Notes under the pieces: generated by a model
Databases searched by the model: none
The model's input: the letters and a program-made list of their open reading frames with translations, nothing else
Told to the model about the DNA's origin: nothing
Made by a program: the position numbers and the translations under genes
Source: an uncultured Candidatus Saccharibacteria bacterium
Lineage (GTDB): Bacteria; Patescibacteriota; Minisyncoccia; Minisyncoccales; RBG-13-42-11
Length of the DNA: 50,161 nt
Assembly: GCA_964467045.1 (NCBI GenBank)
Contig: CAYXOH010000001.1
Coordinates: forward strand, 4,850-55,010
Direction: 5' to 3'
In this document: piece by piece, positions 11,713 to 46,466 of the stretch
How the letters are laid out: every line of letters begins with the position of its first letter
Numbering within the stretch: the first letter of the stretch is position 1

Positions 11713-11739
11713 ATTGTTTTAATTTATTCTTAAAATATA

Positions 11740-13342: not shown

Positions 13343-14769
13343 TAGATTCTCGGGAATAAAGGTTTACTTTTTTTAGTTTCCATTTGTTCTAATATTTTCT
13401 CTGAGGTTTCTGGTAAAAAGGGTTCTAATAATTTTGCTATTTCTGAAATAGCAAATAATAAATTACTGATAACTTCTTTTTGGTTTTTACCTTCTTCCCA
13501 GGGTCGCTCCTTTTCGATATAGCCATCACAAAAACTAATCAATTCCCAAATTAAAACCAAAACCTCATTAAATCTAAACTCATCTAACTCTTTTTTACAA
13601 TTTTTCCAAGTTTTATTTATTTTATTTTTAAATTCGTAATCTGGTTTAATTCGTAATTGGTAAGAAACTTTTTCTGCCATTGTTAATACTCTAGCTACTA
13701 AATTGCCAAGTCCAGAAGCTAAATCTGAGTTATATCTTCCTTTAAATTTCTGATAAGTAAAGTCCCCATCTTCGGTTGCTGGAATTTCTCTTAAAAGGAA
13801 ATATCTTACCGCATCAGTACCATATTTCTTTACTAATTCTACGGGACAAACTATATTGCCTAATGATTTGGACATTTTTTGACCAGCAAAAGTAATAAAG
13901 CCATGAACTAAGATATTTTTTGGTAAAGGAAGTTTTAAGGCAAAAAGGATAGCTGGCCAAAGTAAAATATGAAATCGAAAAATATCTTTTCCCAGACAAT
14001 GAACGTCAGCTGGCCAGAACTTTCGAAATTTAGCACTGTTTTTGGCGAAATCCAGGGCAGAAATATAATTTAACAAGGCTTCAAACCAAATGTAGATAGT
14101 CTGGCTATCATCGTCGGGAACTGGTATCCCCCATTTTAATTTTTCTTTTGAGCGAGAACAACTTATATCCTCCACTCCCTGGTCAATAAAGGCTAAAATC
14201 TCATTCTTTCTGCTTTCAGGAAAAATCTTAATCTCATCATTTTCTATTACCTTTTTAACTTTATCTGAATATTTTGAAAGTTTAAAAAAATAATTCTCTT
14301 CTTCAATAATCTCTGGTTTTTGCTGGTGATGAGGACATCTTCCATCAACCAAGTCTTTTTTCTTAATAAATGCTTCGCAGCCAACACAATAAAGGCCTTG
14401 GTACTTTTTTTCGTAAATATCGCCGTTGGCTTTTAATTCTGACCAAACCTTTCTCACCGTCGGCCAATGTCTTTTCTGGTCAGTAGTCCTGATAAAATCG
14501 TCATTTGAGAGATTTAAAACCTTCTTCAGCCTTTTATATTTACTGGAGAACTCATCACAAAATTCTTTTGGTTCTTTCTTGCATCCCTCTGCTGCTCTTA
14601 AGACTTTCTGACCATGTTCATCAGTTCCGGTCAAAAAGAAAACTTCCTCTCCTAAATTTCTGTGGTGGCGGGCTAAAATATCTGCCTGGACTAACTCCAA
14701 AGAAAAACCGATATGGGGCGGAGCGTTGGTATAAGCAATACTGGTTGTAATATAAAATTTCTTTGCCAT
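13342..14769 (-). CDS. metG: Methionine--tRNA ligase (short form, no C-terminal tRNA-binding appendix)
   Basis: 475 aa. PPHIGF (HIGH variant), CxxC knuckle region, and KMSKSLGN. The stop overlaps the tatD ATG by 1 nt. Confidence 0.95.
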   Translation of the reverse strand: MAKKFYITTSIAYTNAPPHIGFSLELVQADILARHHRNLGEEVFFLTGTDEHGQKVLRAAEGCKKEPKEFCDEFSSKYKRLKKVLNLSNDDFIRTTDQKRHWPTVRKVWSELKANGDIYEKKYQGLYCVGCEAFIKKKDLVDGRCPHHQQKPEIIEEENYFFKLSKYSDKVKKVIENDEIKIFPESRKNEILAFIDQGVEDISCSRSKEKLKWGIPVPDDDSQTIYIWFEALLNYISALDFAKNSAKFRKFWPADVHCLGKDIFRFHILLWPAILFALKLPLPKNILVHGFITFAGQKMSKSLGNIVCPVELVKKYGTDAVRYFLLREIPATEDGDFTYQKFKGRYNSDLASGLGNLVARVLTMAEKVSYQLRIKPDYEFKNKINKTWKNCKKELDEFRFNEVLVLIWELISFCDGYIEKERPWEEGKNQKEVISNLLFAISEIAKLLEPFLPETSEKILEQMETKKSKPLFPRI

Positions 14770-14774
14770 AATTT

Positions 14775-14797
14775 AAAAAAAGAGGGGGCACCTCTTT
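14775..14797 (-). terminator. Intrinsic terminator after rsmI
   Basis: The minus strand reads AAAGAGG-tgccc-CCTCTTT followed by TTTTAAAT. Confidence 0.55.
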
Positions 14798-14830
14798 CTA
14801 TTTTATCATAAAATTAGCTTGATTTAAATC

Positions 14831-15553
14831 TTATTTTTCTTTTTTAACAATGACCACAAATTCTCCTTTTATTTCTCCTGCTGGTATTTTTTTTATCACT
14901 TCCTCAATATTCCCGCGGTAAATCGTTTCAAACTTTTTAGTTAATTCACGACAAACAACAATTCTTAATTCTTTGTTCGCTGAGCGCAAGCGAGGCGGGA
15001 GATGAGGCGTAGCTTCAGCGACCTTAATTCCTAATTCGTTTAAGGTTTTGACTATTCTGTACGGAGATTCATAAAAAACAACCGGAAGTTTTGAATTAGC
15101 TATTTCTTCAAAAAACTTATTTCTTTTCTTTTTAACCGGCGGGAATCCCAAAAATGAAAATTTATCCATCGGAAAACCAGAAACACTGGCTGCCGCAATT
15201 ACAGCCGAGGCTCCGGGTAGGGGCACTACCTTCACCTGATTATTTAGTGACTCAATGACTTTTTCCACTAATTTTCCGCCGGGATCAGAAACTCCAGGAG
15301 TTCCAGCATCAGAAACCAAGGCTAAGTTTTTCCCCTCTTTTAAAATATTAATAATATATTCCACTTTCTTTAACTGGCTGTGTTCGTGATAACTTAAGGT
15401 TGGTTTTTTGATATTATAGTGATCCAGTAATTTTCTTGTTTCCCTGGTATCTTCGCATAAAATTAAATCAACCTCCTTTAAAACTTCTAATGCACGGAGG
15501 CTGACGTCTTTAAGGTTTCCGATTGGTGTAGCAACAATATAAAGCGCACTCAT
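14831..15553 (-). CDS. rsmI: 16S rRNA (cytidine1402-2'-O)-methyltransferase, with a short element-derived insertion
   Basis: 240 aa. LYIVATPIGNLKDVSLRA..LCEDTR signature and RELTKKFE. The extra peptide KVAEATPHLPPRLRSAN is encoded by the repeat at 14975-15023. Confidence 0.9.
   Translation of the reverse strand: MSALYIVATPIGNLKDVSLRALEVLKEVDLILCEDTRETRKLLDHYNIKKPTLSYHEHSQLKKVEYIINILKEGKNLALVSDAGTPGVSDPGGKLVEKVIESLNNQVKVVPLPGASAVIAAASVSGFPMDKFSFLGFPPVKKKRNKFFEEIANSKLPVVFYESPYRIVKTLNELGIKVAEATPHLPPRLRSANKELRIVVCRELTKKFETIYRGNIEEVIKKIPAGEIKGEFVVIVKKEK
14975..15023 (-). repeat. Two-hairpin element copy, in frame and sense inside rsmI
   Basis: The minus strand reads GGTCGCTGAAGCTACGCCTCATCTCCCGCCTCGCTTGCGCTCAGCGAAC. 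It aligns with the copy at 48001-48057. Confidence 0.8.
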
Positions 15554-16611
15554 AAGACCAGGGGTCTTTCTCTTTTTGGGGAAGGAGAAACAGAAGTTTC
15601 GTACTCTTTTCTTTTCTTTAAAAAGTCTCTTAAAAATTCAAATATTACTCCAGCTAAAGGAATAGCTAAAATTGCTCCTAAAATTCCCAAAAGCTTTCCG
15701 CCAATTGCTAAGGCCACCAACACTAAGACAGGCGGCAGGCCAACAAATCTTTTGGTCAAAACCGGAGTAATGATATTGCCTTCTATTTGCTGGATTAAGA
15801 TAAAAGCCACTAAAACAAAGAGAGCTTTCAACCAAGAATCCAAACCAACAAAAATAAAAGCAATAAGTCCGGCGATAATTGGCCCCAGAACAGGGATAAA
15901 ATCAAGGATTCCCGCTAAAATCGCCAAAATTAAAGCATACTTCACCTTAAACAGATAAAGAGTAAGAAATACAGCTAACCCAACAAAAATACAAACTAAA
16001 ACCCGTGAGCCAAACCAGCCAGCTACCTTAGCTCGAGAATTTTCCCAAAGAGATAAAACATATTTCTCATGCTTTTTTGGAGTCAAAAGCCCAATTACTC
16101 TTTCTGTTGCTTTTTCTTCTAAGGAAAGAAAGAGAGCAATGGCTAAAACAAAAATAGTTGAGCCAATTCCTCCGAAGATAACCGCTAAGGCATTTAATAT
16201 ATCAGAGGAGGCTTTTTGAAGGGTTCTCCCAAGAGCTTGGATAAAAGTATCCATACTTTCAAAAGCTTCTATTCCCAAGCCTTTTAATGACGGAGCAATT
16301 TTTTCAAAATACTGTGGGAAAAGCTGAGAAAATTGCTTAATTTCTATAACAAACATCGGAGCTATTGCATAAATAAGCAAAGATAAAATTCCAAATATTC
16401 CGATGTAAACAAAAATAACTGCTAATGCTTTGGGGATACGTAAACGACGAAGAAAATTAATAGCCGGCTCAAATAAAACAGAGATAATTAAAGCAAAAAG
16501 AACCCAAATTAAAATATCTCTGACTAAGAAAATAAGATAGAATCCCAGGAAAGCAAGGGCGATTTTGAAAATTGTTCCCCAGGAAACGTCTAAAACTCTG
16601 TCACCATTCAT
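15550..16611 (-). CDS. AI-2E family transporter (PerM/UPF0118)
   Basis: 353 aa, about 8 TM helices, with the DFIPVLGPIIAG motif typical of the family. 4-nt overlap with rsmI. Confidence 0.8.
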   Translation of the reverse strand: MNGDRVLDVSWGTIFKIALAFLGFYLIFLVRDILIWVLFALIISVLFEPAINFLRRLRIPKALAVIFVYIGIFGILSLLIYAIAPMFVIEIKQFSQLFPQYFEKIAPSLKGLGIEAFESMDTFIQALGRTLQKASSDILNALAVIFGGIGSTIFVLAIALFLSLEEKATERVIGLLTPKKHEKYVLSLWENSRAKVAGWFGSRVLVCIFVGLAVFLTLYLFKVKYALILAILAGILDFIPVLGPIIAGLIAFIFVGLDSWLKALFVLVAFILIQQIEGNIITPVLTKRFVGLPPVLVLVALAIGGKLLGILGAILAIPLAGVIFEFLRDFLKKRKEYETSVSPSPKRERPLVL

Positions 16612-16629
16612 ACGATTTTTTATTTATAA

Positions 16630-16683
16630 GTTCGATGAGATAAATCTCATCTCTCGTCTTAATTTATATTTTATCTCTCGAAC
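16630..16683 (+). repeat. Two-hairpin element copy (intergenic), bounded by an imperfect 11-12 bp inverted repeat
   Basis: GTTCGATGAGATAAATCTCATCTCTCGTC....ATCTCTCGAAC. The first hairpin is GATGAGAT/ATCTCATC. Confidence 0.7.
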
Positions 16684-16719
16684 GTCGAGATGAAATTTTA
16701 ATTTCATTGAGCAAACGAA
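16684..16719 (+). repeat. Short sub-type element (GTCGAGATGAAATT-tta-AATTTCATTGAG)
   Basis: Near-identical architecture to 50012-50052 (GTCGAAATGAAACT-ga-AGTTTCATTGAG). Confidence 0.65.
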
Positions 16720-16748
16720 TTATGGAAAAGAAGGTTTACCTTCTTTGA

Positions 16749-18017
16749 CTATAATTTTAATAACTTTTCAAATTTTTCTTTATCTTTATGTGGACCAATT
16801 AAAGCTAAATTTAAATTTTTGTTTCTAAAAATATCTTTTGCTACTTTAAGGATATCATTTGGAGTAATTTTATCAATTTTAGCAAAGATTTCCTTTGGGG
16901 TAAGAATTCTTTTTTCAAATATTTCTTGAGTAGCATAAAAGGATGCTTTAGCATCGGAAGATTCTAATAATAATGCTAATTTTCCTTTAAGATTATCTTT
17001 AGCTTTTTTAAGTTCTGATTCAGAAATCTTATTTTGAGATACCTTTCTATATTCTTTTAAAATAGCTGAAATTGCTTTTTCAATTCTCTGATTATCCACT
17101 CCGGCCCGAGCAGTAAAATAACCCGTATCGGGATTTGCCTCTACTTCGGTTTTAATGTAATAAGCCAATCCTAATTTTTCTCTAATTTCTACGAATAACC
17201 TAGAACTCATCATTCCGCCTAAAATTATTCCCAAAACATCCTGGGTGTATCGTTGAGGATGAAAAACATTATATCCCCTCACTCCAAGATATAAGTGTGA
17301 TTGGTCGGTTTTTCTATATTCTAAAAGACATTGAGGACTTTTTTGTTTTTCAATGACTTTTAGCTTTTGGCTTGGACCTACTTCAGCTACGTTAATAAAG
17401 TATTTTTGTATTAATTTCTTAGATTTTTGCTTATTAAAGTTTCCTGCTATGCATAAAATCGTATTTGAAGGGACATATTGTTTCTTCCTGTAATTTATTA
17501 GACTATTGCGGGTTATTCTCCTGACACTTTCTTTAGTGCCGGCAATATCCCAGCCGGCCGGCTGATTACCATATAATAATTTTGGCCACATTACTCCTTC
17601 AACATAACTCATTGGATGGTCGTAAATCATATTAATTTCCTCAATAATTACTTTTTTTTCTTTTTCAATTTCTTTTTGTGGAAGTAAGCTGTTTAAAAAT
17701 ATATCCGAGACCCAATCAAATACTAATTCAAATTGGGAAGCTTCTACTTTGGCAAAGTATCCTGTAAAATCCTGACCGGTAAAAGCATTATAAATCCCCC
17801 CAATCTTGTCCAAGGGTTCTACTACCCCAACAGGAGTAGACCTTTTTTTGGTTCCCTTGAACATCATGTGTTCCAAAAAATGAGAAATCCCATTGATTTC
17901 CTTTGTCTCATACTTTGAACCGGTTCCAACCAAAATTAAAACAGTTACCGCCTGACTGCTTTTTTGAGGAACAGTAATAATCCTTAATCCATTTTTAAGA
18001 GTTGTTTTTGTATACAT
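16749..18017 (-). CDS. M16-family zinc peptidase (insulinase-like)
   Basis: 422 aa with the inverted zinc motif HFLEH plus a downstream E. Confidence 0.85.
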   Translation of the reverse strand: MYTKTTLKNGLRIITVPQKSSQAVTVLILVGTGSKYETKEINGISHFLEHMMFKGTKKRSTPVGVVEPLDKIGGIYNAFTGQDFTGYFAKVEASQFELVFDWVSDIFLNSLLPQKEIEKEKKVIIEEINMIYDHPMSYVEGVMWPKLLYGNQPAGWDIAGTKESVRRITRNSLINYRKKQYVPSNTILCIAGNFNKQKSKKLIQKYFINVAEVGPSQKLKVIEKQKSPQCLLEYRKTDQSHLYLGVRGYNVFHPQRYTQDVLGIILGGMMSSRLFVEIREKLGLAYYIKTEVEANPDTGYFTARAGVDNQRIEKAISAILKEYRKVSQNKISESELKKAKDNLKGKLALLLESSDAKASFYATQEIFEKRILTPKEIFAKIDKITPNDILKVAKDIFRNKNLNLALIGPHKDKEKFEKLLKL

Positions 18018-19318
18018 TCAACTAAATCTTTAATTTTTACTCTTTCTTGCGACATGGTGTCCCTGTCACGAACCGTCAGATCATCCTTTTCTAAAGTTTC
18101 AAAATCAATAGTCACAGCAAATAAGGTGCCGATTTCGTCTTGCCTGCGATAACGTCTTCCGATTGAACCCACTTCATCATACTGGGTCATAAAATGAGGC
18201 TTTAAAATTTCAAAAATCTCTTTAGCTTTCTTGACTAATTCTGGCTTATTTTTGACTAAAGGCATAACTGCCACTTTAATCGGCGCTATTTTCTTATCGA
18301 TTTTAAAAACTACTTCTATTTCCTTGGTAGCTTCGGTTGTCTTTGTTCTGCCACCCTTAATTTCCGTATAGGCATTGCACAAAACAGCCAAAAGAGCTCT
18401 TTCTAATCCCATGGTTGGTTCAATAACATAAGGATAATATTTCTTTTTTGTCTCTTCATCAAAATATTTCAAATCTTTCCCGGAAAACTGACTGTGTCTC
18501 TTTAAATCGTAATCTGTACGATTGGCTACGCCAGCTAACTCTGCCCAGCCAAAGGGAAACTTGTATTCAATATCAACTGTTCTTTTGGAATAATGGGCTA
18601 AGGATTTTTTAGGATGTTCGTAAAGACGCAGGTTCTCTTTCTTCAACCCCAAATCCAAAAAGAATTTTCGCCATTCCTCCAGCCAGAAATCAAACCATTG
18701 TTCATCTTTTCCCGGTTCAACAAAATATTCAATTTCGGCAAGGTCAAATTCTTTGGAACGAAAAGTAAAGTTCCCAGTAGTAATTTCATTTCTAAAACTC
18801 CGGCCAACCTGAGCAATGCCAAAAGGAACTTTTAAACGTTGAGATTCCTGAACTAGTTTAAAGTTGGTAAACATTGATTGGGCAGTTTCTGGTCTTAAAT
18901 AAGTTATATGGGCTTCGTCTTCCACCGGTCCCAGAAAAGTTTTAAACAATAAATTGAATTGCCGAGAAGGAGTGAAATCTTTACCCCCACATTGGGGACA
19001 CTCTTTTTTTGTTAATTGGTCTTCTCTAAAACGGGAATGGCATTTCTTGCACTCAATTAAAGGATCGGTAAAACTTTCAAGGTGTCCTGAAGCTTCCCAA
19101 GTTTTAGGATGCATTAAAACCGTACCATCTATCAAAACTACATCTTCTCGATTTTGAACAAATTTTTTAAGCCAGAGATTCCTGATATTATTTTTTAAAA
19201 GAGCGCCCAGGGGCCCGTAATCCCAAAGTGCCTCCACGCCTCCGTAAATCTCCGAGGATGGAAAAATAAAACCACGTCTTTTGCAAAGTGATACAATTTT
19301 TTCCATTAAAGCTGCCAT
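17984..19318 (-). CDS. glyQS: Glycine--tRNA ligase (dimeric class II type)
   Basis: 444 aa. The N-terminus ..CKRRGFIFPSSEIYGG....WDYGPLG is characteristic. Confidence 0.95.
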   Translation of the reverse strand: MAALMEKIVSLCKRRGFIFPSSEIYGGVEALWDYGPLGALLKNNIRNLWLKKFVQNREDVVLIDGTVLMHPKTWEASGHLESFTDPLIECKKCHSRFREDQLTKKECPQCGGKDFTPSRQFNLLFKTFLGPVEDEAHITYLRPETAQSMFTNFKLVQESQRLKVPFGIAQVGRSFRNEITTGNFTFRSKEFDLAEIEYFVEPGKDEQWFDFWLEEWRKFFLDLGLKKENLRLYEHPKKSLAHYSKRTVDIEYKFPFGWAELAGVANRTDYDLKRHSQFSGKDLKYFDEETKKKYYPYVIEPTMGLERALLAVLCNAYTEIKGGRTKTTEATKEIEVVFKIDKKIAPIKVAVMPLVKNKPELVKKAKEIFEILKPHFMTQYDEVGSIGRRYRRQDEIGTLFAVTIDFETLEKDDLTVRDRDTMSQERVKIKDLVECIQKQLLKMD

Positions 19319-19329
19319 AAATTTGAAAT

Positions 19330-21006
19330 TTATTGTACTACTCCCTGAGAATCGCTCACGGTTTCATCATCCGGTAAGGTAGTATCAATGGCCGTACTGC
19401 TGGCGGTTAATATGGTTTCCGTCCATTGATCCTGACCGCTGATTGTAGCAGCGCTAATTAAGTCCGGGGTTTTTCCTCTTTGTGAGCCGTTTGGGGTAAA
19501 TTCAATCTGGAAAGAAATATTAGGAGCATCATTCAGAACTCCCTGCCCAACTTCTAAATCACCTATCTCCCAAACTAATTCTTTGGATTGAGAATCAAAG
19601 GCAAATTTTTCAGATTCTTCCTCGGGAAAAATTTTACCGGTTAACTTTACTTGAACTGGTAAAACAGCTTTTACTTTGGTGTTTTTTGCTTCCGAATAGT
19701 AATTCTTAACTTGCCAAATTATTGTATAGGTAGTGGCCTCGCCAACAGTTGGTGGTAGGGGTCCTGAATTTCCAAAAACTTCTTCCTGAAAATACCCCTT
19801 TTGGACGATTTCTATTTTTGATTTAACTTTATTGACAAATTCTTCTCTGGCTTGGGGGAGAATAATTCTATTTTTAATCACTGGGTTTTTATTTTCAGGA
19901 GAAGAAATGTGCCATTCATCTTTTAGTTCAACCCAAAACTCTACCTTACCTTCTTCTAATGAATCTAAAAACTGTAGTTCGGGAACTCGTCTCCAATCAA
20001 AAACGATGGAATTATCTCCTGGTTCAAAATTACCAAAATCTGATTTTATACTCTGTAAATCAAAAGCTTCTCCTTCTAATTTGTTGACTAAAGACATATA
20101 AGTTAAAGATTCCTCTCCGATATTCTTAAAGAAAATCTCGTAGTGTAGCAAATCTCCAGGAGAAGCAATATATTCTGGATTATTATTGATTTGCTGAGTA
20201 ATATGTAAATCTGGCTGAACAATTTCTATTCCTTTAGCCGCTTCCTTTAAGAGGACGATTTCTCCATTCTGCCAGCTGCCAATTTTTGCCTGAAAAACTT
20301 TCTCTTCTCCAACTTCTCCTCTAATTTTCCCGGTAATTTCAACTCTTCCGCCGTCAGCTTTATTTAAAAGTCCAATTTCCCAGTCAGTTTTTTCCAATGA
20401 TTCAGGAATAGCACTAATAAATTCAAACTCTGAAGGATAACTAATTGTTATTCTTAAATCAGAAAGCGGATAATCTACATTGGAAAAATAATTCAATCTA
20501 AAGCTCAATTCCTTTCCAGATTCAATTTTTGATGGAATATCAAATTCAAAGGTCAGGGGCACCTTATTAATTTTAGTAGTAAATGTAGTAGATGATTCAT
20601 AGCCAGCTTTTAAATTTTTGGGCCGGTAGCTCAGTAAGGCTTTAGCCGTCTTAATTTCTCCTTCTTTGCCTAAAAGTCGGGCTTTAAAGCTAAAGGTTTT
20701 TTCTTCGCCGGGATAAATCGCCCCGCCAAAATCATCTGAGCCCTTAGTAACCCTCAGAGATTCTTCTCCGACTGGTATAGAATAGTCGGGATACTCAAAA
20801 ATTAATTCAGGTTCCTCCAAGCGAGTGGTTCCGTTATTTTTATACTTAACAATATATTCAATTTCCTGGAGAAGATCGGCTTCTTCCGGACCCAAGATTT
20901 CCACCTTTAAAATATCTTTAGAATAAATATTCTTTTGAAAAAAATAAAAACCTAAAACGCCTGCTAAAATAGCTAAAAATATAATAAAAAGGGTAGCTTT
21001 TTTCAT
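19330..21006 (-). CDS. Hypothetical membrane-anchored extracytoplasmic protein
   Basis: 558 aa. A single N-terminal hydrophobic helix (ATLFIIFLAILAGVLGFYFF) is followed by long beta-rich repetitive sequence. No catalytic motif recognised. Confidence 0.7.
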   Translation of the reverse strand: MKKATLFIIFLAILAGVLGFYFFQKNIYSKDILKVEILGPEEADLLQEIEYIVKYKNNGTTRLEEPELIFEYPDYSIPVGEESLRVTKGSDDFGGAIYPGEEKTFSFKARLLGKEGEIKTAKALLSYRPKNLKAGYESSTTFTTKINKVPLTFEFDIPSKIESGKELSFRLNYFSNVDYPLSDLRITISYPSEFEFISAIPESLEKTDWEIGLLNKADGGRVEITGKIRGEVGEEKVFQAKIGSWQNGEIVLLKEAAKGIEIVQPDLHITQQINNNPEYIASPGDLLHYEIFFKNIGEESLTYMSLVNKLEGEAFDLQSIKSDFGNFEPGDNSIVFDWRRVPELQFLDSLEEGKVEFWVELKDEWHISSPENKNPVIKNRIILPQAREEFVNKVKSKIEIVQKGYFQEEVFGNSGPLPPTVGEATTYTIIWQVKNYYSEAKNTKVKAVLPVQVKLTGKIFPEEESEKFAFDSQSKELVWEIGDLEVGQGVLNDAPNISFQIEFTPNGSQRGKTPDLISAATISGQDQWTETILTASSTAIDTTLPDDETVSDSQGVVQ

Positions 21007-21026
21007 AATATATTTAATTTACCAAA

Positions 21027-21755
21027 TTATTTAATTTGTTCCAAGACTGCCGATAAATAATAGTTGGATATTTTGTTTAATTCGTTGAATGTTTGATTAT
21101 CAATCCTTAATCTTCTTAGAATGGCTAAATCTTTCCTTAAAATAATCCTTAATATTTTTACGGCATCGGAGCTAATTGGCTGGAGAAATTTTGTCTTATC
21201 CTTACATTCCTCTCCTATCAGCCCTCCTTCTTTTAAGCTAAAGGAAATATTATTAGGGATTATTTTTTTCTGACAAATAGAACAGTAATAAAGCTCTACT
21301 TGATAGCCTAAAATAGAAAGAAGATTCCAGAGAAAATAATAGTATATCATAGAACATTGAACAGGGAACGGGAAATGGCTATTGAGTGTTGTAAATGTTT
21401 CCGTTAATAGATGCCAGATTTTGGGGTCGGGCTCCTCTCCTTTAAACAAATTGTCCACCGCATCAGAAATTCGATGGGCAATTGCTATTTTTTTTAGATC
21501 TCCTCTTAAATTTTTAAAGTTGTTGATTAAGATAGCATCAGTTAAGGTTTTGTGGGTTTTTCCCTGAATAAATTCGATTTCTGAAAGATAGAAAATTTCT
21601 AAACCCGCTCTTAGTTTTGATTCTATTTTTCTTTCAGCTTTTGCTAATAAATCCAACCTTCCAAAATCTTTAGTATAAATTGTAAAAATTCTGTCTGCTT
21701 CTCCACGATTAATTTTCTTCAAGATAAAACCTGGCGTTCGGTAATGCAGAAACAT
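21027..21755 (-). CDS. recO: DNA repair protein RecO
   Basis: 242 aa. OB-fold N-terminus (GFILKKINRGEADRIFTIYTKDFGRL) and a C-x2-C ... zinc-like segment (CSICQKK). Confidence 0.85.
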   Translation of the reverse strand: MFLHYRTPGFILKKINRGEADRIFTIYTKDFGRLDLLAKAERKIESKLRAGLEIFYLSEIEFIQGKTHKTLTDAILINNFKNLRGDLKKIAIAHRISDAVDNLFKGEEPDPKIWHLLTETFTTLNSHFPFPVQCSMIYYYFLWNLLSILGYQVELYYCSICQKKIIPNNISFSLKEGGLIGEECKDKTKFLQPISSDAVKILRIILRKDLAILRRLRIDNQTFNELNKISNYYLSAVLEQIK

Positions 21756-21765
21756 ATTTATTTGA

Positions 21766-22068
21766 TTAGTATGGCTTAACTCCAGTAATATCTTGTAAAA
21801 ATCTGATTTTTCTATCAGTACCTACCCTTTCTTGGCTTGTCTTAGCTCGATGTCTTTCCGTCCTTAACTCTCTTAGTCGTCTTTTAACCTCTATTTCTGA
21901 AATATGGCTGCTAAATCTCGAATGGGGAAACATTTCTTTTTCCATTTTCATTCTTTGTTGCAGAGAATACATTCTGCCGCCAGCTCCCGGAATATATGGA
22001 GAAGATTTTTTTAATATTTCTCTCAATTCAGGCCTGGTAATTCCTTTTTTCTTGTTGAAAATAGACAT
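21766..22068 (-). CDS. Hypothetical small basic protein
   Basis: 100-aa ORF packed between recO and ileS. No recognisable family. Confidence 0.55.
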   Translation of the reverse strand: MSIFNKKKGITRPELREILKKSSPYIPGAGGRMYSLQQRMKMEKEMFPHSRFSSHISEIEVKRRLRELRTERHRAKTSQERVGTDRKIRFLQDITGVKPY

Positions 22069-22071
22069 AAT

Positions 22072-25000
22072 TTAAATCTTTTTAATTGCTAACCATAATT
22101 TTTGTTGCTCGACCTTTAATTCTTTTTTTATACCAAAAACTTGTTTTGGTTTTTCTCCTAAAACAAAATTTTTGACTTTTGCTTCTTTGATAATAAATTC
22201 TTTATTTTTTTGGAGGATTTTGTTTAAATTACCTTCTCCAAGAAATCTGACTAAAATTTTATCTTTTGGTTTCAAGTTGGCTTTCTTTCTCATCTCTTGG
22301 ATATTGCGGATTATCTCCCTGACGATGCCTTCTTCTTTAAGTAGCGGAGTTATTTTAGTATCTAATTCTAATTTTTCTTTAAGTTTAGAGTCAAAAACCA
22401 CTTCCTTAATGTTAACTTCTTCAGCAATTAAATTAAGTAAATCATTATCAATTTTTGACTTTTCGCTTTTAATTTTTAATTTTTGAAGCGGTTGTCTAAC
22501 TTTTATTCCGGCCCTTGCCCGCTCGGCCAGTGCTCTGGCAACAATTTCTCTTACCTCTCTCATCTTTTTTTCTAATTTATCATCTTTTATTTTTTTATTT
22601 TCTTCCGGCCAATCTTCTAAATGGCAACTTCTTTTCTTCCCCAGCCCCCGATAGATCACTTCACTTAGGAACGGAATAAAAGGAGCAGTTAGTTTGCTTA
22701 GAGTTAAAAGTGCAAAACTTAAAGTTTCCGAGACCTCTTTTAATTCTTTTTTGCTGGCAGGTTTTTGAAATCTCTTTCTGGAACGCCGGATGTACCATAA
22801 AGAAAGATCTTCAACTACAAAATTCTCAATTGCCCTAGCCGCACCAGTCACATTATACCTATTCAATCTTTGAGTGGCTTCCCGGATAAGATTATCTAGC
22901 CTGGCAATAACCCATTTATCAAGAATATGTTTGGATTTTGGAATTTGGGATTTGGAGTTTGGAATTTCTTTTTTTTGAGCATAGGTTCTTAAAAAAATAT
23001 ATGAGTTCCAGAAAGTCAAGATGAATTTTTTCAGAGCTTGGTCTACTTCTCTTTCAGAAAATAACTTAGCATCTCCCGGCTGGTTTATGGTGTAAAAGTA
23101 CCAGCGAGTGGCATCTGCTCCATATTCTTCAATAATAGAATTCGGTTCAACTACATTGCCTTTGGATTTTGACATCTTATCTCCTTTTTCATCTAAAACA
23201 TGACCCAAAGAGATAGCATTTTTATAAGTCGGCCCTTTCTTTAATAAAGTAGAGATAGCCAAAAGTGTATAAAACCACCCCCGGGTTTGATCAATGGCTT
23301 CAGAAATATAATCTGCCGGGAACTGTTCTTCCTGTAATTTTTGGTTTCCGAAAGGATAATGATATTGAGCAAAAGGCATAGCCCCTGAATCAAACCAGCA
23401 ATCAATCACTTCCGGAGTTCTCTCCATTAAGTTCTGGCATTTGGGACAATAAAATTTAACTTTATCAATGTAAGGACGGTGGAAATCTAATTCCATATTT
23501 TCGTTATACGGCAAATTACTGAACTTTAATTTTCTCAACTCTCCCGTTTTAATATGGGACCTCATTCTTTTTTCTACCATTTGTTTTTGGGAAAGTCCTT
23601 CGTTTGCCCCGGCCAAGGCAGTAATGGGGAATTCATGACTGATAATCAAAACTGTTTTATTCTGATATTTTTTATCGGTATCTTTTAAAAAAGAGTGCAT
23701 TCTTTTTTGTGCATCTGAATAATTTTCTCCTTTTGGTGCTCTAACTTTGAATCTTTTCAGATAATAATCTAATTTTTTAAGTTTTCTTTCCGGATCCCAA
23801 AATCTCCCCGCTATTTTAACTGATTTTCCGTTCAGACCGCCCATATCAAGTTCTCTTAATCTTTTGTCAAATTTCGGTTTAACTCCTGTCTCTCTTTCTA
23901 TAATTTCAGCTGTCTGTCTTGTTCTCAAAAGATCCGAAGAAAAAATTAAATCAATTTTAGCTTTTTTTATTTTTTCAGCCACTTTTGCAATTTGTCTTCT
24001 TCCTCTTTTTGTCAGGGAACATTTGCTTTTTTCTGGCCAGCAAGAAACTAAATTTTTGACATTTCTATCGGACTCCCCGTGTCTCAAAATAAGATATTTA
24101 TTACTGCTGAATTTTTTCAAGAGCAGGTCCTTTTTTGAACCAATAATTTCCACTTGGCCACATTTTTTACATTGCCAAACAGGCAGAGGTGTCCCCCAGT
24201 ATCTTTCCCTAGAAAAAGCCCAATCTTTAATTTCTCTTAACCATTCACCAAATCTCCCCTTTTTTAAATGAGCTGGAATCCAATTAATTTTTTGACTATT
24301 TGCAAGCAAACCTTTTCTGACCTTCTTTACATTTATAAACCAGCTTTGTTTAGCATAATAAAGCAAGGGTGAATTACATCGCCAACAAAAAGGATAATCG
24401 TGACTATAGGGCTCTTTTTTGAAAAGCAGGTTTCTCTTTTTTAAATCTTCAACAATTAAAGGATCAGCCTTTTTAACAAATATTCCTTTCCATGGTTTAA
24501 CTTCCGGAACGAAACAGCCAACTTCATCTACAGTAATAAAAATTGGTAAATTCTTTTCTTTTCCTAATTCCATGTCTTCTTCGCCAAAAGCCGGAGCTAT
24601 ATGAACCAATCCTGTTCCCTCTTCTAAAGAAACAAAGTTGCCAGCAACTATAAACCAAGCTTTTTTATCGGGTTTCATAAATTTATACAAAGGTTCGTAT
24701 TCTAACCCAATTAATTCTTTTCCTTTAATTTCTTCAACAATTTTCCCCTCCACCCCGGAAGCTTTCATTCTTTCCTTGGCTAAAATTAAATAGCAAGCCT
24801 CTTCCCTTGAGGAAGAAGGCGAAGATAAAGATGAGGACGAAGTCTTCATCGCCGATTCATTGTCAGCTTTCACTTTTACATAAGTTAAATTTGGGTTTAC
24901 AGCAACAGCAACATTACCGGGCAATGTCCAGGGAGTGGTCGTCCAAACCAATAAGCTGGTATCTGATTTTAATTTAAATTTTACATATATTGCCGGCTCT

Positions 25001-25587
25001 TCAATTCTTTCGTACCCCAAAGACACTTCATGAGAAGATAAACTCGTTCCACATCTTGGACAATAAGGAACTACTTTGTAATCCTGATAAATGAGGCCCT
25101 TTTTATAAATTTCTTTTAAAATCCACCAAACGCTTTCAATATATTCTGTTTCATATGTAATATAAGGATTTTTTAAATCCAACCAGAAACCGATTCTTTC
25201 GGTTAAACCTTCCCAATCTTTTTTATAATTCCAAACCGATTGTTTGCATAGTTTATTAAACTTAGCTATGCCGTATTTCTCAATATCTTTTTTGCTTTTC
25301 AATCCCAATTTCTTTTCAGTTTCTAATTCAACCGGCAATCCATGGGTATCCCAGCCAGCTTTCCTCAAAACTTTAAATCCCTGCATAGTTTTGTATCTAC
25401 AAATAATATCCTTATAAATTCTGCTTAAAACATGATGGATACCCGGTTTAGCATTAGCGGTTGGAGGTCCTTCAAAAAATACAAAATCCGGCGCCTTTTT
25501 CCGCTGCAAAATGGATTTTTCAAAAACTTGATTGTCTTGCCAAAATTTCAATATTTTCTTTTCGTTTTTGGGAAAATTTATCTCCAT
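22072..25587 (-). CDS. ileS: Isoleucine--tRNA ligase (type 2) carrying an embedded histidine-phosphatase domain and two repeat-derived insertions
   Basis: Start set at MEINFPKNEKKILKFWQ (ATG 25587, 8 nt after the argS stop); the track ORF extends 44 codons into argS. Has the PPTANAKPGIHHVLSR (HIGH-type) motif, the WAFSRERYWGTPLPVW motif and DKMSKSKGN. Confidence 0.93.
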   Translation of the reverse strand: MEINFPKNEKKILKFWQDNQVFEKSILQRKKAPDFVFFEGPPTANAKPGIHHVLSRIYKDIICRYKTMQGFKVLRKAGWDTHGLPVELETEKKLGLKSKKDIEKYGIAKFNKLCKQSVWNYKKDWEGLTERIGFWLDLKNPYITYETEYIESVWWILKEIYKKGLIYQDYKVVPYCPRCGTSLSSHEVSLGYERIEEPAIYVKFKLKSDTSLLVWTTTPWTLPGNVAVAVNPNLTYVKVKADNESAMKTSSSSLSSPSSSREEACYLILAKERMKASGVEGKIVEEIKGKELIGLEYEPLYKFMKPDKKAWFIVAGNFVSLEEGTGLVHIAPAFGEEDMELGKEKNLPIFITVDEVGCFVPEVKPWKGIFVKKADPLIVEDLKKRNLLFKKEPYSHDYPFCWRCNSPLLYYAKQSWFINVKKVRKGLLANSQKINWIPAHLKKGRFGEWLREIKDWAFSRERYWGTPLPVWQCKKCGQVEIIGSKKDLLLKKFSSNKYLILRHGESDRNVKNLVSCWPEKSKCSLTKRGRRQIAKVAEKIKKAKIDLIFSSDLLRTRQTAEIIERETGVKPKFDKRLRELDMGGLNGKSVKIAGRFWDPERKLKKLDYYLKRFKVRAPKGENYSDAQKRMHSFLKDTDKKYQNKTVLIISHEFPITALAGANEGLSQKQMVEKRMRSHIKTGELRKLKFSNLPYNENMELDFHRPYIDKVKFYCPKCQNLMERTPEVIDCWFDSGAMPFAQYHYPFGNQKLQEEQFPADYISEAIDQTRGWFYTLLAISTLLKKGPTYKNAISLGHVLDEKGDKMSKSKGNVVEPNSIIEEYGADATRWYFYTINQPGDAKLFSEREVDQALKKFILTFWNSYIFLRTYAQKKEIPNSKSQIPKSKHILDKWVIARLDNLIREATQRLNRYNVTGAARAIENFVVEDLSLWYIRRSRKRFQKPASKKELKEVSETLSFALLTLSKLTAPFIPFLSEVIYRGLGKKRSCHLEDWPEENKKIKDDKLEKKMREVREIVARALAERARAGIKVRQPLQKLKIKSEKSKIDNDLLNLIAEEVNIKEVVFDSKLKEKLELDTKITPLLKEEGIVREIIRNIQEMRKKANLKPKDKILVRFLGEGNLNKILQKNKEFIIKEAKVKNFVLGEKPKQVFGIKKELKVEQQKLWLAIKKI
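22928..22967 (-). repeat. Heptanucleotide tandem array (coding strand AYYCCAA x ~5.5) inside ileS
   Basis: The plus strand reads GTTTGG ATTTTGG AATTTGG GATTTGG AGTTTGG AATTT and encodes EIPNSKSQIPKSK. A sister array is at 25874-25906. Confidence 0.85.
23500..24102 (-). other. Histidine-phosphatase (PGAM / His_Phos_1-like) domain inserted in IleRS
   Basis: Residues ..YLILRHGESDRN....LTKRGRRQIAKV....IFSSDLLRTRQTAEII....LRELDMGGLNG....PKGENYSD..KRM..FL....VLIISHEFPI. All signature blocks of the family appear in order, between IleRS blocks KCGQVEIIGS and DFHRPYID. Confidence 0.8.
24793..24857 (-). repeat. Two-hairpin element copy, in frame and sense inside ileS
   Basis: The minus strand reads AATCGGCGATGAAGACTTCGTCCTCATCTTTATCTTCGCCTTCTTCCTCAAGGGAAGAGGCTTGC and encodes ESAMKTSSSSLSSPSSSREEAC. 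Confidence 0.8.
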
Positions 25588-25595
25588 AACTTTAT

Positions 25596-27143
25596 TTACA
25601 TTTTCTCTGGGGCAGAAATTCCCATTAATTCTAAAGTGTTCTTTAAGATAATTTTTGTAGCCAAAACCAGAGCTAAACGAGCTTGTGACAAAGACCTGCT
25701 TCCGGTCAGGACTCGACAATCCCTATAGAATTGATGGAAAGCGGTTGCCAGCTCTATTGAATATTGTGGTAATCGCTGAATTTGATAATCCTTGGCAGTG
25801 TCTTCAATAATTTCCGGCAATCTAATCAGTTGTTTAACCAAGTTAAATTCTGAAGGATGAACTAATAATTTTAAGTTTGGATTTTGGGATTTGGAATTTG
25901 GAATTTTTCGCAAGATACTGCAAATCCGGGCGTGGGCATACTGGACATAATAAACAGGACTTTTAGCAGATCTCTCTTTGGCCAAATCCACATCAAACTC
26001 CATCTGGGTATCTAACGATTTCATTAAATAAAAAAATCTTACTGCATCCAATCCCACTTCATTTATTAACCAGTCCAGAGTTATAACTTGCCCCTTCCTT
26101 TTAGAAATCTTTCCCTTTTTTAATCTGACTACCTGAGAAATTAAGATATCTAAATCTCCCTTATACCCCAACATCTTGGCCACTGCTTTTATTTTGCCGA
26201 CATGCCCCTGGTGATCAGCGCCCCAAATATTAATTATTCTATCAAATTTCCTTTCAAACTTATCTTTATGATAGACAATGTCAGAAAGCAAATAAGTTGG
26301 TTCTCCTGTTTCTCTAATTACTACCCAGTCTTTTACGTCACCATATTTTGAAGTTTTTAACCAAACAGCTCTTTCTTTTTTGTAAACTAAGTTTTTATTC
26401 GCCAGCCAATTTCTAATCTTGATTATCTTTCTTTTCTGGTATAAATCATTTTCTTCCGAAATCCATTTATCAAACTTAATTTTCATTTTATTTTCAATAA
26501 AATTTTTGATGTCTTTCTGAATTGATTGAGCTAACAGATATCCAGCCTCTCCTTCATTTTTAGATTTTTTTATTTTATTTTCTATTCTTTTAATTGCTTT
26601 TCTTAAATAATTTGTCAAATAAGTGGTTCCTCTACCCAAAGCAGTTTTTCCTAATTCTTTTATCTGGACACTGTTTTTAGAATCATTAATGTAATATTCA
26701 CGAGTAACCTTATAGCCAGATTTTTCTAAAATATTAGCCAGAGCATCACCAAAAAAAGCTCCCCTGCCGTGTCCTAAATGCAAGAGACCTGTAGGGTTAG
26801 CTGAAATAAATTCAATGTTCACCCTGCACTTTTTTCCGAAAAGTGCAGGGTGAAATTTTCCATAATTCTTTCCCTCCTTCAAAATATCTTTTACCTGTTT
26901 TTGTAAATATTCCCTGGAAAGAAAAAAATTGATAAAACCATTTTTCACTTCTACCTTCTCTAAAATGGGCGATTTTATGTTTTTAGCGATCTCTTGAGGG
27001 TTTTTCTTAAGAACCATCGCTACATTGGTAGCATAATCACCAAAGACTAGATCCACCGGCTCTTCTATTTCAACTTCTATCTTTTTCCCATAAAGACTTC
27101 TAATTGATTTTTCTACTGAATTTTTAATTTCTTCTTTAACCAT
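25596..27143 (-). CDS. argS: Arginine--tRNA ligase
   Basis: 515 aa. SANPTGLLHLGHGRGA (HIGH) and the C-terminal anticodon-binding domain ending ..ISAPEKM. Confidence 0.93.
   Translation of the reverse strand: MVKEEIKNSVEKSIRSLYGKKIEVEIEEPVDLVFGDYATNVAMVLKKNPQEIAKNIKSPILEKVEVKNGFINFFLSREYLQKQVKDILKEGKNYGKFHPALFGKKCRVNIEFISANPTGLLHLGHGRGAFFGDALANILEKSGYKVTREYYINDSKNSVQIKELGKTALGRGTTYLTNYLRKAIKRIENKIKKSKNEGEAGYLLAQSIQKDIKNFIENKMKIKFDKWISEENDLYQKRKIIKIRNWLANKNLVYKKERAVWLKTSKYGDVKDWVVIRETGEPTYLLSDIVYHKDKFERKFDRIINIWGADHQGHVGKIKAVAKMLGYKGDLDILISQVVRLKKGKISKRKGQVITLDWLINEVGLDAVRFFYLMKSLDTQMEFDVDLAKERSAKSPVYYVQYAHARICSILRKIPNSKSQNPNLKLLVHPSEFNLVKQLIRLPEIIEDTAKDYQIQRLPQYSIELATAFHQFYRDCRVLTGSRSLSQARLALVLATKIILKNTLELMGISAPEKM
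25874..25906 (-). repeat. Heptanucleotide tandem array (AYYCCAA x ~4.5) inside argS
   Basis: The plus strand reads AGTTTGG ATTTTGG GATTTGG AATTTGG AATTT and encodes KIPNSKSQNPNLK. It has the same frame and nearly the same sequence as the ileS array. Confidence 0.85.
26818..26854. repeat. Perfect 16-bp-stem hairpin inside argS coding sequence
   Basis: TTCACCCTGCACTTTT-ttccg-AAAAGTGCAGGGTGAA. It encodes KFHPALFGKKCRVN just before the HIGH region. Confidence 0.9.
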
Positions 27144-27206: not shown

Positions 27207-27284
27207 ATGAAAATATTAGCTGAAAACCCCGCACCAAAACTTTCGGTTTGGTACGGGGCAGGCAAAAAAGCTTATGGATTATGA
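27207..27284 (+). CDS. Candidate 25-codon upstream ORF (MKILAENPAPKLSVWYGAGKKAYGL) overlapping the smpB start (ATGA)
   Basis: Its first seven codons encode the same MKILAEN as smpB but differ at six synonymous positions. Its stop TGA (27282-27284) overlaps the smpB ATG (27281-27283). Confidence 0.3.
   Translation: MKILAENPAPKLSVWYGAGKKAYGL
27227..27258 (+). promoter_or_regulatory. Imperfect 14-bp-stem hairpin in the smpB leader / uORF
   Basis: CCCCGCACCAAAAC-tttc-GGTTTGGTACGGGG (12 of 14 positions pair). Confidence 0.5.
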
Positions 27285-27733
27285 AAATTCTCGCAGAGAA
27301 TAAAAAAGCGTATTATAATTACCAAATTTTGGAGAAATTTGAGGCGGGAGTTTCTTTAACCGGCCAGGAGGTGAAATCCTTGAAAACAAGGGGAGTAAAT
27401 TTAGCAGGGAACTATATAATTTTAAAAGGTAAAGAGGTTTTTTGGGTAGGGGCTAATATCCCTCCCTACCAACCCAAAAATGCTCCTGCTGATTATGATC
27501 CAGCAAGAGCAAGAAAACTTCTTTTAAAGAAATCTGAAATAAGACGCCTCATTGGCAAGGTAAAAGAAAAAGGGTTGACTTTAGTGCCCTTAAGGGTATA
27601 TACTAAAAACGCTAAAATAAAGCTTGAATTCGGAATTGCCAAGGGGAAGCAAAAGACTGATAAAAGAGAACTAATTAAAAAACGAGAAACAGACAGAGAA
27701 ATCCGCAGAGCGCTTAAGGGCAAAATCCAATAA
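27281..27733 (+). CDS. smpB: SsrA-binding protein
   Basis: MKILAENKKAYYNYQILEKFEAGVSLTGQEVKSLK.. is a canonical SmpB N-terminus. The TTG start at 27248 in the track adds 11 non-conserved residues. Confidence 0.9.
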   Translation: MKILAENKKAYYNYQILEKFEAGVSLTGQEVKSLKTRGVNLAGNYIILKGKEVFWVGANIPPYQPKNAPADYDPARARKLLLKKSEIRRLIGKVKEKGLTLVPLRVYTKNAKIKLEFGIAKGKQKTDKRELIKKRETDREIRRALKGKIQ

Positions 27734-27783: not shown

Positions 27784-28132
27784 GGGGGTGAAAGGTTTAG
27801 ACAGGAATTTCAGTCAAAATAGGCAGATAGAGCTACTGGAATCTCTTAAAACTTCCAGTAAAACAAATAAGTGTCAACTTATTTAAGAAACCTGCTTTAG
27901 CTTACGTTTAAAGCAGCATCCGATTTATTGATTCTCGCTAGGTAAAAACCGGGTGTCATATTCAGCGAGATAAGATAGTTCTTTTGTCTCGAAAACTATC
28001 TAAAAGATAGAGACGAGTGGTACCAGAATTTTTGTCTGTTTTTTATCTGGTATTTCAAAAATCAAAACAGAATAAATCTGTAGAGATATTTTGACTAAAT
28101 TTTTGGACGGGAGTTCGCCCTCCCCACCTCCA
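27784..28132 (+). ncRNA. ssrA: tmRNA (transfer-messenger RNA)
   Basis: 5' GGGGGTGAAAGGTTTAGACAGG and 3' GGACGGGAGTTCGCCCTCCCCACCTCCA form the tRNA-Ala-like domain (acceptor GGGGGTG/CACCTCC with G3:U70; T stem GGGAG/CTCCC). It lies directly after smpB. An internal frame ..AAG AAA CCT GCT TTA GCT TAC GTT TAA (..KKPALAYV*, stop 27909-27911) lies in an 8-bp helix like a tag ORF; the resume codon is not assigned. CCA is not encoded (the sequence reads ACA). Confidence 0.85.
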
Positions 28133-28142
28133 CAAAAATCTG

Positions 28143-46308: not shown

Positions 46309-46466
46309 TGTCCCTGGGCTGATTCGAACAGCCAATCTTCCCGCCCCTTTTTGATGTCCCTACTCCGAATCGAACGGAGATCCCAACCTCCGGAGGGTTG
46401 TACTTTATCCGTTAAGCTATAGGGACTTAAAAAGGCGGGACGTTTTATCCATTAAACCACAGGGAC
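46309..46466 (-). tRNA. Arg-type tRNA-like gene whose anticodon loop is replaced by an extended helix enclosing a complete tRNA gene
   Basis: The 5' part (46466-46427) is GTCCCTG TG GTTT AATGGATA AAAC G TCCCG CCTTTTTAA. The 3' part (46354-46309) is TCAAAAAGGGG CGGGA AGATT GGCTG TTCGAAT CAGCC CAGGGAC A. The acceptor, D, anticodon and T stems all pair; no canonical anticodon loop can be formed. Confidence 0.55.
46355..46426 (-). tRNA. tRNA-Arg (anticodon CCG)
   Basis: GTCCCTA TA GCTT AACGGATA AAGT A CAACC CTCCGGA GGTTG GGAT CTCCG TTCGATT CGGAG TAGGGAC A. This is a full cloverleaf with U33, G37 and discriminator A. CCA is not encoded. Confidence 0.92.

Follow-up and report, generated by a model that had tools for sequence, protein, structure and literature searches.

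Accessory domains for editing, tRNA binding and signalling are a classic theme in aminoacyl-tRNA synthetases, which are among the best-studied enzymes. The locus described here raises the question of what a histidine phosphatase is doing inside one of them, within the body of an isoleucyl-tRNA synthetase (IleRS, gene ileS). It lies in a stretch of 50,161 nucleotides (nt) from an uncultured Candidatus Saccharibacteria bacterium of the Candidate Phyla Radiation (GenBank assembly GCA_964467045.1, contig CAYXOH010000001.1, positions 4,850 to 55,010 of the forward strand). The whole of this stretch is referred to as the window, and coordinates are positions within it unless a locus name precedes them. 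A model that saw only the letters (hereafter the sequence-only reading) had claimed that a complete histidine-phosphatase domain resembling phosphoglycerate mutase (PGAM) is inserted into the IleRS at 23500-24102. Sequence, predicted fold and comparative data uphold this claim, and the borders were essentially right, the insert occupying 23491-24120. We are practically certain that the architecture is real and conserved, and on balance we favour, with some reserve, a genuine and selectively maintained two-enzyme protein as the overall best explanation.

A full-length protein search gave 120 homologues of 1120-1231 amino acids (aa) with 60-100% identity from NCBI, JGI, ENA and Logan assemblies, and counts over 120 refer to these. 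The frame of the window protein is as follows.

22072-25587, minus strand: ileS coding sequence, 1171 aa, a type-2 IleRS with phosphatase insert
24121-25587, minus strand: IleRS N-terminal part, aa 1-489, with the first Rossmann half, the connective peptide (CP) core, the CP1 editing domain, CP2 and the first half of CP3; aligns with residues 7-477 of structure 1ILE
25432-25443, minus strand: non-canonical class I signature G49-I50-H51-H52 (GXHH replacing HXGH)
24160-24171, minus strand: first Cys pair of the CP3 zinc knuckle, C473-K-K-C476, in 120/120 fusions; aligns with the Thermus CQAC stretch
23491-24120, minus strand: inserted segment, aa 490-699, a full-length histidine phosphatase with short linkers
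23575-24093, minus strand: Pfam His_Phos_1 (PF00300), aa 499-671, E=5.1e-34
23437-23448, minus strand: second Cys pair of the CP3 zinc knuckle, C714-P-K-C717, in 120/120 fusions
22075-23490, minus strand: IleRS C-terminal part, aa 700-1171, with the second Rossmann half, KMSKS, the anticodon-binding domain and type-2 C-terminal domains (DUF5915)
23164-23178, minus strand: KMSKS, aa 804-808, in 120/120 close homologues
22480-22920, minus strand: anticodon-binding domain, Pfam Anticodon_1
25596-27143, minus strand: argS, directly upstream of ileS with an 8-nt spacer

The open reading frame (ORF) is continuous, as had been claimed; it begins at ATG 25587 and ends in TAA at 22072-22074. A longer alternative ORF with a TTG start at 25719 overlaps argS, whose stop is at 25596; because this frame runs into argS, we consider ATG 25587 the sensible ileS start. 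When the protein was aligned to Thermus thermophilus IleRS (1ILE), residues 2-489 corresponded to 7-477 and residues 700-1028 to 488-821, such that about 10 Thermus residues stand against about 210 residues here at the insertion point, a net gain of about 200 aa. The insert is placed between CKKC and CPKC, and both pairs align with the Thermus CP3 zinc-binding cysteines. CP3 joins CP2 to the second Rossmann half, carries a zinc motif in Thermus IleRS, and is a peripheral subdomain with a different topology in each solved IleRS (PMC7191050). The distance from WGTPLP to WFDSG is 65-70 residues in insert-less relatives and 264-273 residues in fused proteins. We found no break in base composition at the insert borders and no flanking repeats, other than chance AT-rich repeats near the borders.

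The enzyme around the insert looks like a complete synthetase. It scored 906.6 bits with the NCBIfam ileS equivalog TIGR00392 (cut-off 621.4), the insert notwithstanding, and Pfam matched tRNA-synt_1 (E=1.6e-116) as two separate stretches, Anticodon_1 at aa 890-1036 and DUF5915 at aa 1004-1170. Residues 190-399 correspond to the CP1 editing-domain structures 1WK8, 1UDZ and 1UE0 (E=4e-39), and the top solved relatives are the T. thermophilus IleRS and the Priestia megaterium IleRS2. KMSKS and the anticodon-binding part after the insert are normal, again as had been claimed. At the GXHH positions, the homologues keep G49 in 119/120, H51 in 119/120 and H52 in 110/120; this swap is known only from type-2 IleRS and has been linked to mupirocin hyper-resistance (PMC10485003). 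The NCBIfam models for the IleRS exceptions MupA and MupB gave 825 and 821, both below the cut-off of 1900, and no second ileS was found within the 50-kb window. Judged by its sequence, the host is thus a bona fide type-2 IleRS with the GXHH signature, and it is predicted to aminoacylate tRNA-Ile. It is of the same type as the GXHH enzymes of Deinococcus radiodurans and Streptomyces griseus IleRS2 (PMC10485003), with which it shares DUF5915. However, the characterised IleRS2 enzymes have only a small CP3 subdomain, whereas here CP3 holds a 200-aa enzyme. Inside the CP1 editing domain we also noticed a Ser-rich low-complexity stretch, NESAMKTSSSSLSSPSSSREEACY (aa 243-266, window 24790-24861, minus strand), which is not in the homologue consensus and of which aa 244-262 are modelled at a predicted local distance difference test score (pLDDT) below 50.

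What kind of phosphatase is the insert? The Pfam search that the sequence-only reading had proposed gave a strong match to His_Phos_1, with 118.1 bits against a cut-off of 21.7 and coverage of profile positions 2-167 of 194. The AlphaFold2 (AF2) model of the insert alone has a pLDDT of 94.4 and a predicted template-modelling score (pTM) of 0.90. In Foldseek the model reached template-modelling (TM) scores of 0.80 to Rv2419c, 0.79 to HFP (9MMH), 0.77 to PspA and 0.74 to PhoE (full range 0.74-0.81), with a root-mean-square deviation (rmsd) of 2.3-3.0 A to Rv2419c, PspA and PhoE. A profile search of PDB sequences returned the same neighbours, with CobC also among the closest relatives. We therefore compared the insert family with Rv2419c (glucosyl-3-phosphoglycerate phosphatase), PspA (phosphoserine phosphatase, 4IJ5), PhoE (1H2E), CobC and HFP (riboflavin pathway). 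All share the fold, the Arg-His...Arg...Glu...His set and the size of about 200 aa, but identity is merely 21-26%, and the insert family has features of its own: a CWPEK motif, an R-E pair (578-579), a conserved KTGExRK strand at the C-terminus and a charge that is strongly basic. A further difference is that these relatives are free-standing metabolic proteins, whereas the insert family is tied to ileS. Among NCBIfam models the insert scored 98-104 for dPGM_arch (cut-off 225), 83-88 for GpmB (261), 89.5-94.8 for CobC TIGR03162 (162.9), 74-79 for PspA (350) and 30 for SixA (74.5). Since all of these are below the equivalog cut-offs, the insert is given no functional subfamily. By its sequence it belongs to branch 1 of PF00300, in the short small-molecule class like PhoE, PspA and Rv2419c and in no characterised functional family, and its E-x3-G motif and size of about 200 aa group it with phosphatases, not mutases.

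The motifs that the sequence-only reading had quoted were each located where it had placed them. Together with the predicted catalytic residues they are as follows.

aa 499-509: LILRHGESDRN
aa 525-536: LTKRGRRQIAKV
aa 548-563: IFSSDLLRTRQTAEII
aa 577-587: LRELDMGGLNG
aa 618-625: PKGENYSD
aa 646-655: VLIISHEFPI
24076-24084, minus strand: RHG motif, R502-H503-G504, with H503 as predicted phospho-accepting nucleophile
23923-23925, minus strand: R555, second catalytic Arg, in 120/120 fusions
23851-23853, minus strand: E579, predicted general acid (proton donor), Glu or Asp in 120/120 fusions
23635-23637, minus strand: H651, second catalytic His, in 120/120 fusions

In the close homologues R502, H503, R555 and H651 are invariant, and position 579 holds Glu in 96 of them and Asp in 24; E621, R629, the four zinc cysteines and KMSKS are invariant as well. 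We also assembled a divergent set of 151 complete phosphatase domains from cluster representatives, down to about 31% identity. There the first Arg is present in 151/151, the nucleophile His in 150/151, the second Arg in 150/151 and the second His in 151/151, while the acid position has 139 Glu, 11 Asp and one gap, and the full catalytic set is intact in 148/151. Stand-alone orthologues share the same invariant residues. For unsaturated pairs of loci, the ratio of nonsynonymous to synonymous substitution rates (dN/dS) of the insert was 0.014 (L044/L045), 0.12 (L009/L010) and 0.14 (L031/L060), matching the values of 0.02-0.135 for the N- and C-terminal parts of the IleRS. The insert is under purifying selection, with constraint equal to that of the synthetase core, and from its residues the phosphatase is very likely to be catalytically competent. 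These data bear on the view that the insert is a decayed relic or a structural spacer, in which the fold would be kept without catalysis as a bulky replacement of CP3. The sequence-only reading had listed a structural relic as one option, and had expected decay to be seen as loss of the catalytic His and Arg among orthologous fusions; instead these residues are kept in 120/120. Apart from the variable topology of CP3 among IleRSs, nothing favours such a relic. Residue conservation in 148/151 divergent domains and in every close homologue, dN/dS values of 0.01-0.14 that equal those of the synthetase core, and the invariant residues of stand-alone orthologues lead us to reject it as highly improbable.

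The sequence-only reading had also called for a database search for long IleRSs of this architecture and had named a chimeric assembly as a way in which it could fail. All 120 closest full-length homologues, at 1120-1231 aa, have the same architecture with both PF00133 and PF00300. Cluster representatives at 50% identity were searched exhaustively, with 200 proteins matching at E<1e-30. The best 150 were sorted with hidden Markov models (HMMs) for the IleRS-N, phosphatase and IleRS-C parts, and of these best 150, 143 were fusions and 7 were stand-alone phosphatases. Fusions were present in 36 GTDB species representatives, among them L060, a complete genome of 647 kb, and L045, a scaffold of 957 kb. 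The fused architecture is widespread in Parcubacteria/Paceibacteria, and record titles include Nealsonbacteria (with the complete genome CP179889.1), Staskawiczbacteria, Wildermuthbacteria, Portnoybacteria, Paceibacterota and Parcubacteria. In public records the fusions carry no annotation beyond 'isoleucine--tRNA ligase' or 'class I tRNA ligase family protein'. An artefact or a selfish insertion, whether a chimera, a gene-call error, an intein-like element or another mobile element, therefore has a negligible probability. Chimeric assembly and gene-call error are ruled out by the recurrence of the architecture in hundreds of independent assemblies, a complete genome among them, and by the lack of a composition break. 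The insert also keeps the reading frame and evolves under purifying selection. An intein or mobile element was rejected, with no Pfam match to Hint, endonuclease or transposase domains, no splicing motifs and no flanking repeats; PADLOC gave no match either.

Two observations on these records concern labels and gene calls. Many loci are titled 'uncultured Candidatus Saccharibacteria', perhaps a generic label, with genes that group with Nealsonbacteria and Paceibacterota loci, and one Parcubacteria-type locus (L009, DATKUR010000003.1) is titled 'Candidatus Humimicrobiaceae', a label that looks unreliable, as in many binchicken metagenome-assembled genomes (MAGs). About eight cluster representatives near 750 aa in length (P0243, P0249, P0265, P0302, P0351, P0359, P0369 and P0378) share an internal IleRS start, six with Met and two with Val, which resembles a split gene. 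The case that we traced, P0249 (L086), lies on a contig of 2.5 kb and begins 32 nt from its end; a split IleRS was therefore set aside, and these proteins are most likely a gene-calling artefact of truncated contigs.

How did a phosphatase come to be placed in CP3? The window insert is 50-60% identical, with end-to-end coverage, to many free-standing proteins of about 198 aa in Nealsonbacteria and Minisyncoccales-type MAGs. Stand-alone homologues encoded beside an insert-less ileS share 53-65% identity with the window insert and up to 76% with other fused inserts. In such relatives the stand-alone gene is found between argS and ileS. On the contigs of P0004 and P0043 the order is smpB, argS, phosphatase, an insert-less ileS (947-949 aa), a small ORF, recO, DUF7619, a class II aminoacyl-tRNA synthetase, an M16 peptidase and an AI-2E transporter, with smpB divergent from the rest. 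There the phosphatase gene stops 4 nt ahead of the ileS start or overlaps it by 10 nt. The gene order of the window is identical to that of these two loci, save that the phosphatase lies inside ileS.

In order to survey this arrangement more widely, we scanned one genome per GTDB species and obtained 80 loci, which were classified by the same HMMs; 62 were of Patescibacteria type and 18 were others. Among the 62, one phosphatase lies inside IleRS in 34 and two lie inside in 2. In 13 loci a stand-alone gene is 0-38 nt upstream of an insert-less ileS, in 8 it is 0.6-1.9 kb upstream on the same strand, and in 5 no ileS is present within the flank, two of these loci stopping at the phosphatase. 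The phosphatase is thus within ileS or 0-1.9 kb upstream of it on the same strand in 57/62 Patescibacteria loci, compared with no ileS linkage in the 18 homologues outside the clade (28-36% identity; Chloroflexota, Proteobacteria, Binatia and other non-Patescibacteria). Either as a neighbour or as a fused part, the phosphatase stays linked to ileS across a large clade. No constant third partner was found between phosphatase and ileS, the intervening genes being HD_3, CYTH, PALP, a PaaX/Cas2-like protein and unknowns. At non-adjacent loci we noted MazG, an HD_3/YfbR-like protein and a CYTH protein as neighbours of the phosphatase (L062:7602-7949, L025:8172-8807, L033:7546-8148).

The history of the arrangement seems to involve more than one change. 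In neighbour-joining trees, which carry no support values and are indicative only, the IleRS core with the insert removed places the loci with a separate upstream gene in basal and paraphyletic positions, and the fused enzymes fall mostly in one derived clade, with exceptions both ways (L029, L028). In the phosphatase tree, rooted on homologues outside the clade, fused and stand-alone forms are interleaved. One locus (L001:4707-8151) has a stand-alone phosphatase directly upstream of an insert-less ileS. Compared with the fused relatives, namely the window (WIN), L006, L009 and L010, its ArgRS shows 66-71% and its phosphatase 59-73% identity, but for its IleRS the identity to these relatives is just 48-51%, and to any other IleRS at most 57%. 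Since IleRS identity is far below that of ArgRS and phosphatase, the ileS of L001 was apparently replaced or diverged rapidly. Its phosphatase gene nonetheless sits directly upstream, which implies more than one change of the phosphatase state.

In some IleRSs the phosphatase is present in two, three or four copies, and as many as four sites are used. Tandem CP3 copies are present in P0347, P0357 and P0375. In L044 (2145-6248) and L045 (5516-9619) a second copy lies about 55 residues downstream in the HYPFE...FPADY loop; these are independent MAGs, with a synonymous rate (dS) of about 0.31-0.38 and dN/dS of 0.014-0.023 (0.014 for the first phosphatase copy). A copy at the start of the anticodon-binding domain was found in P0323 and P0366, and P0355 has four copies, one at the CP-core/CP2 junction, of which the last is truncated. 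With one exception, the complete copies retain all seven tracked residues; in P0349 copy 1 both accessory positions, Glu and Arg, are occupied by Gln. The core Arg-His, Arg, Glu and His are present in each copy covered through the second His.

Why, then, has the association been kept? It is probable, in our view, that the phosphatase is functionally coupled to IleRS. The ileS link in 57/62 Patescibacteria loci against 0/18 outside the clade supports coupling, as does L001, which retains the phosphatase beside ileS despite a diverged or replaced IleRS; the extra copies at other loops, which appear catalytically intact by their residues, point the same way. Where the genes are separate, their close spacing points to co-translation and probably to a complex of the two proteins. 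Phosphatase and IleRS would then work together, and fusion would make permanent a partnership that otherwise relies on co-translation. The domain may act as a phosphomonoesterase, via a phospho-His503 intermediate, on phosphorylated species that arise at or are bound to IleRS, and a nucleotide-type substrate would be our preferred candidate. One option is the 2'/3'-phosphorylated acceptor end of tRNA-Ile, which could not be charged; another is a nucleoside monophosphate or a phosphorylated compound that binds the synthetic site. The sequence-only reading had likewise speculated on the removal of 2'/3'-phosphates from damaged tRNA ends or the hydrolysis of a phosphorylated inhibitor or nucleotide. 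CP1, a hydrolytic site already resident in the enzyme, offers an analogy: the phosphatase may be a second, cis-acting clean-up hydrolase beside it. That the substrate is specifically a tRNA end or a nucleotide is possible but rather doubtful. Somewhat less likely again is a quality-control or repair site resident in the synthetase. Directly on IleRS, such a site would strip the tRNA-Ile acceptor end of a 2'/3'-phosphate or pyrophosphate, or would break down a nucleotide-like phosphorylated inhibitor, and charging would go on without a separate repair pathway.

Two features hint weakly at the class of substrate. The net charge per 100 aa is +13.4 for the window insert (pI 10.3) and +6.9 on average for fused inserts, compared with a mean of -0.9 for homologues outside the clade, +2.7 for the IleRS core and +3.7 for other ORFs of the window; such a basic charge is a faint hint of a nucleotide or nucleic-acid substrate. 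The MazG, HD/YfbR-like and CYTH neighbours belong to nucleotide phosphohydrolase families and are a similarly slight hint of a nucleotide substrate class.

The main rival to functional coupling is that the insert is a hitch-hiking metabolic phosphatase, acting for example on phosphoserine, 3-phosphoglycerate or a sugar phosphate. It would have no mechanistic tie to aminoacylation and would have been captured because its gene lay next door, the ileS site giving constitutive co-expression in a tiny genome. We take this as a serious though minority possibility. The closest solved relatives by sequence and fold (PspA, PhoE, CobC, Rv2419c and HFP) are all metabolic enzymes that act on small molecules, and the ancestral upstream position makes chance in-frame capture by ileS physically likely. 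CP3, being peripheral and of variable topology, should also tolerate insertions (PMC7191050). On the other hand, the link was kept in 57/62 loci across IleRS cores that are only about 40-50% identical, and it outlasted the apparent replacement or rapid divergence of ileS in L001. Insertion at several loops in two to four copies with intact core residues would be odd for an unrelated metabolic enzyme, and the homologues outside the clade lack the ileS link.

A regulatory module is quite unlikely, although the histidine phosphatase superfamily includes protein phosphatases. The insert would then be a protein phosphatase (for phospho-His, Ser, Thr or Tyr; compare SixA, PGAM5 and Sts-1) acting on IleRS or on a translation factor, or alternatively a sensor of a phosphorylated metabolite that tunes IleRS activity. 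Tight physical association with one protein suits a dedicated regulator, and there is a weak SixA match of 30 bits, which is however well below the cut-off of 74.5. Moreover, the nearest structures are small-molecule enzymes, no kinase gene was found among the annotated or scanned neighbours, and multiple tandem catalytic copies are atypical of a sensor.

Several points weigh against the coupled two-enzyme protein that we prefer, or against parts of it. An ancestral gene beside ileS would ease insertion physically, and repeated insertion is consequently weaker evidence of coupling than it looks. The trees that describe the history are only indicative, and the insert is below the cut-off of every NCBIfam equivalog. 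The full-length AF2 model is globally poor (pTM 0.62), with TM scores to IleRS structures of 0.30-0.44 by query and 0.38-0.51 by target and an rmsd of about 17-19 A, the insert being locally at pLDDT 90-97. The basic charge could reflect a general Lys-richness of these AT-rich genomes. As for repair of tRNA ends, we know of no branch-1 histidine phosphatase shown to dephosphorylate RNA 3' ends, and such repair fails to explain why the domain is in IleRS alone.

Comparable systems exist for parts of this arrangement. Class Ia synthetases have other insertions, such as the CP1 editing domain and the leucine-specific domain of LeuRS, which are likewise foreign modules grafted on the synthetase body. 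CP1 is also a precedent for a second cis-acting hydrolytic site, although both its chemistry (an aminoacyl-ester hydrolase compared with a phosphomonoesterase) and its site (compared with CP3) differ. NCBIfam NF040702, 'isoleucine--tRNA ligase, N-acetyltransferase domain-containing' (ileS_w_GNAT), describes an IleRS with another enzyme domain; the window protein scored 327 bits against a cut-off of 1999 and is not of that family, and acetyltransferase chemistry differs. A branch-1 histidine phosphatase is joined to proteins that handle nucleic acids or tRNA genes in the Rv2228c-type RNase H/acid phosphatase and in TFIIIC tau55. Those fusions are terminal, not loop insertions, and not in an aminoacyl-tRNA synthetase, and with the bifunctional RNase H/acid phosphatase model NF005567 the insert scored 82-86 bits, below the cut-off of 326. 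Full-text searches of the literature on IleRS or other aminoacyl-tRNA synthetases with a histidine phosphatase or phosphoglycerate mutase, including that on the Candidate Phyla Radiation, Patescibacteria and Parcubacteria, yielded no description of the fusion, and a 2026 preprint on IleRS domain evolution mentions neither the phosphatase nor CP3. The phosphatase-ileS pair is thus a conserved partnership undescribed in the literature that we searched, and none of the precedents listed here has a phosphatase inside a synthetase. The wide spread in Parcubacteria/Paceibacteria, the site in the CP3 zinc knuckle and the separate upstream gene in sister lineages go beyond what the sequence-only reading had noted.

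The comparative pattern amounts to a natural Rosetta-stone experiment, with an upstream gene, an internal domain, several sites, up to four copies and conservation at the level of the synthetase. It suggests that both activities belong together in a large uncultivated clade with minimal genomes. If resident repair were true, this would be the first aminoacyl-tRNA synthetase with a built-in phosphoesterase activity, and a modular one, which some lineages keep as a separate subunit and others as one to four internal domains. Should the substrate be a tRNA end or a nucleotide, the known repertoire of synthetases would be widened by a novel form of proofreading or repair, while a metabolic substrate would make it a striking case of drift-driven domain capture by an essential enzyme.

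Two other features of the window concern translation. ARAGORN reported only a tRNA-Arg(CCG) at 46355-46426 and no tmRNA, but Rfam RF00023 (139 bits) places a tmRNA gene at 27784-28135, plus strand, just downstream of smpB (27248-27733, plus strand) and divergent from argS. Five aminoacyl-tRNA synthetase genes lie on one strand within 18 kb (9316-27143, minus strand); two are those of IleRS and ArgRS, and the remaining three are as follows.

9316-11712, minus strand: LeuRS-like
13342-14769, minus strand: MetRS-like
17984-19318, minus strand: class II aminoacyl-tRNA synthetase (ProRS-like)

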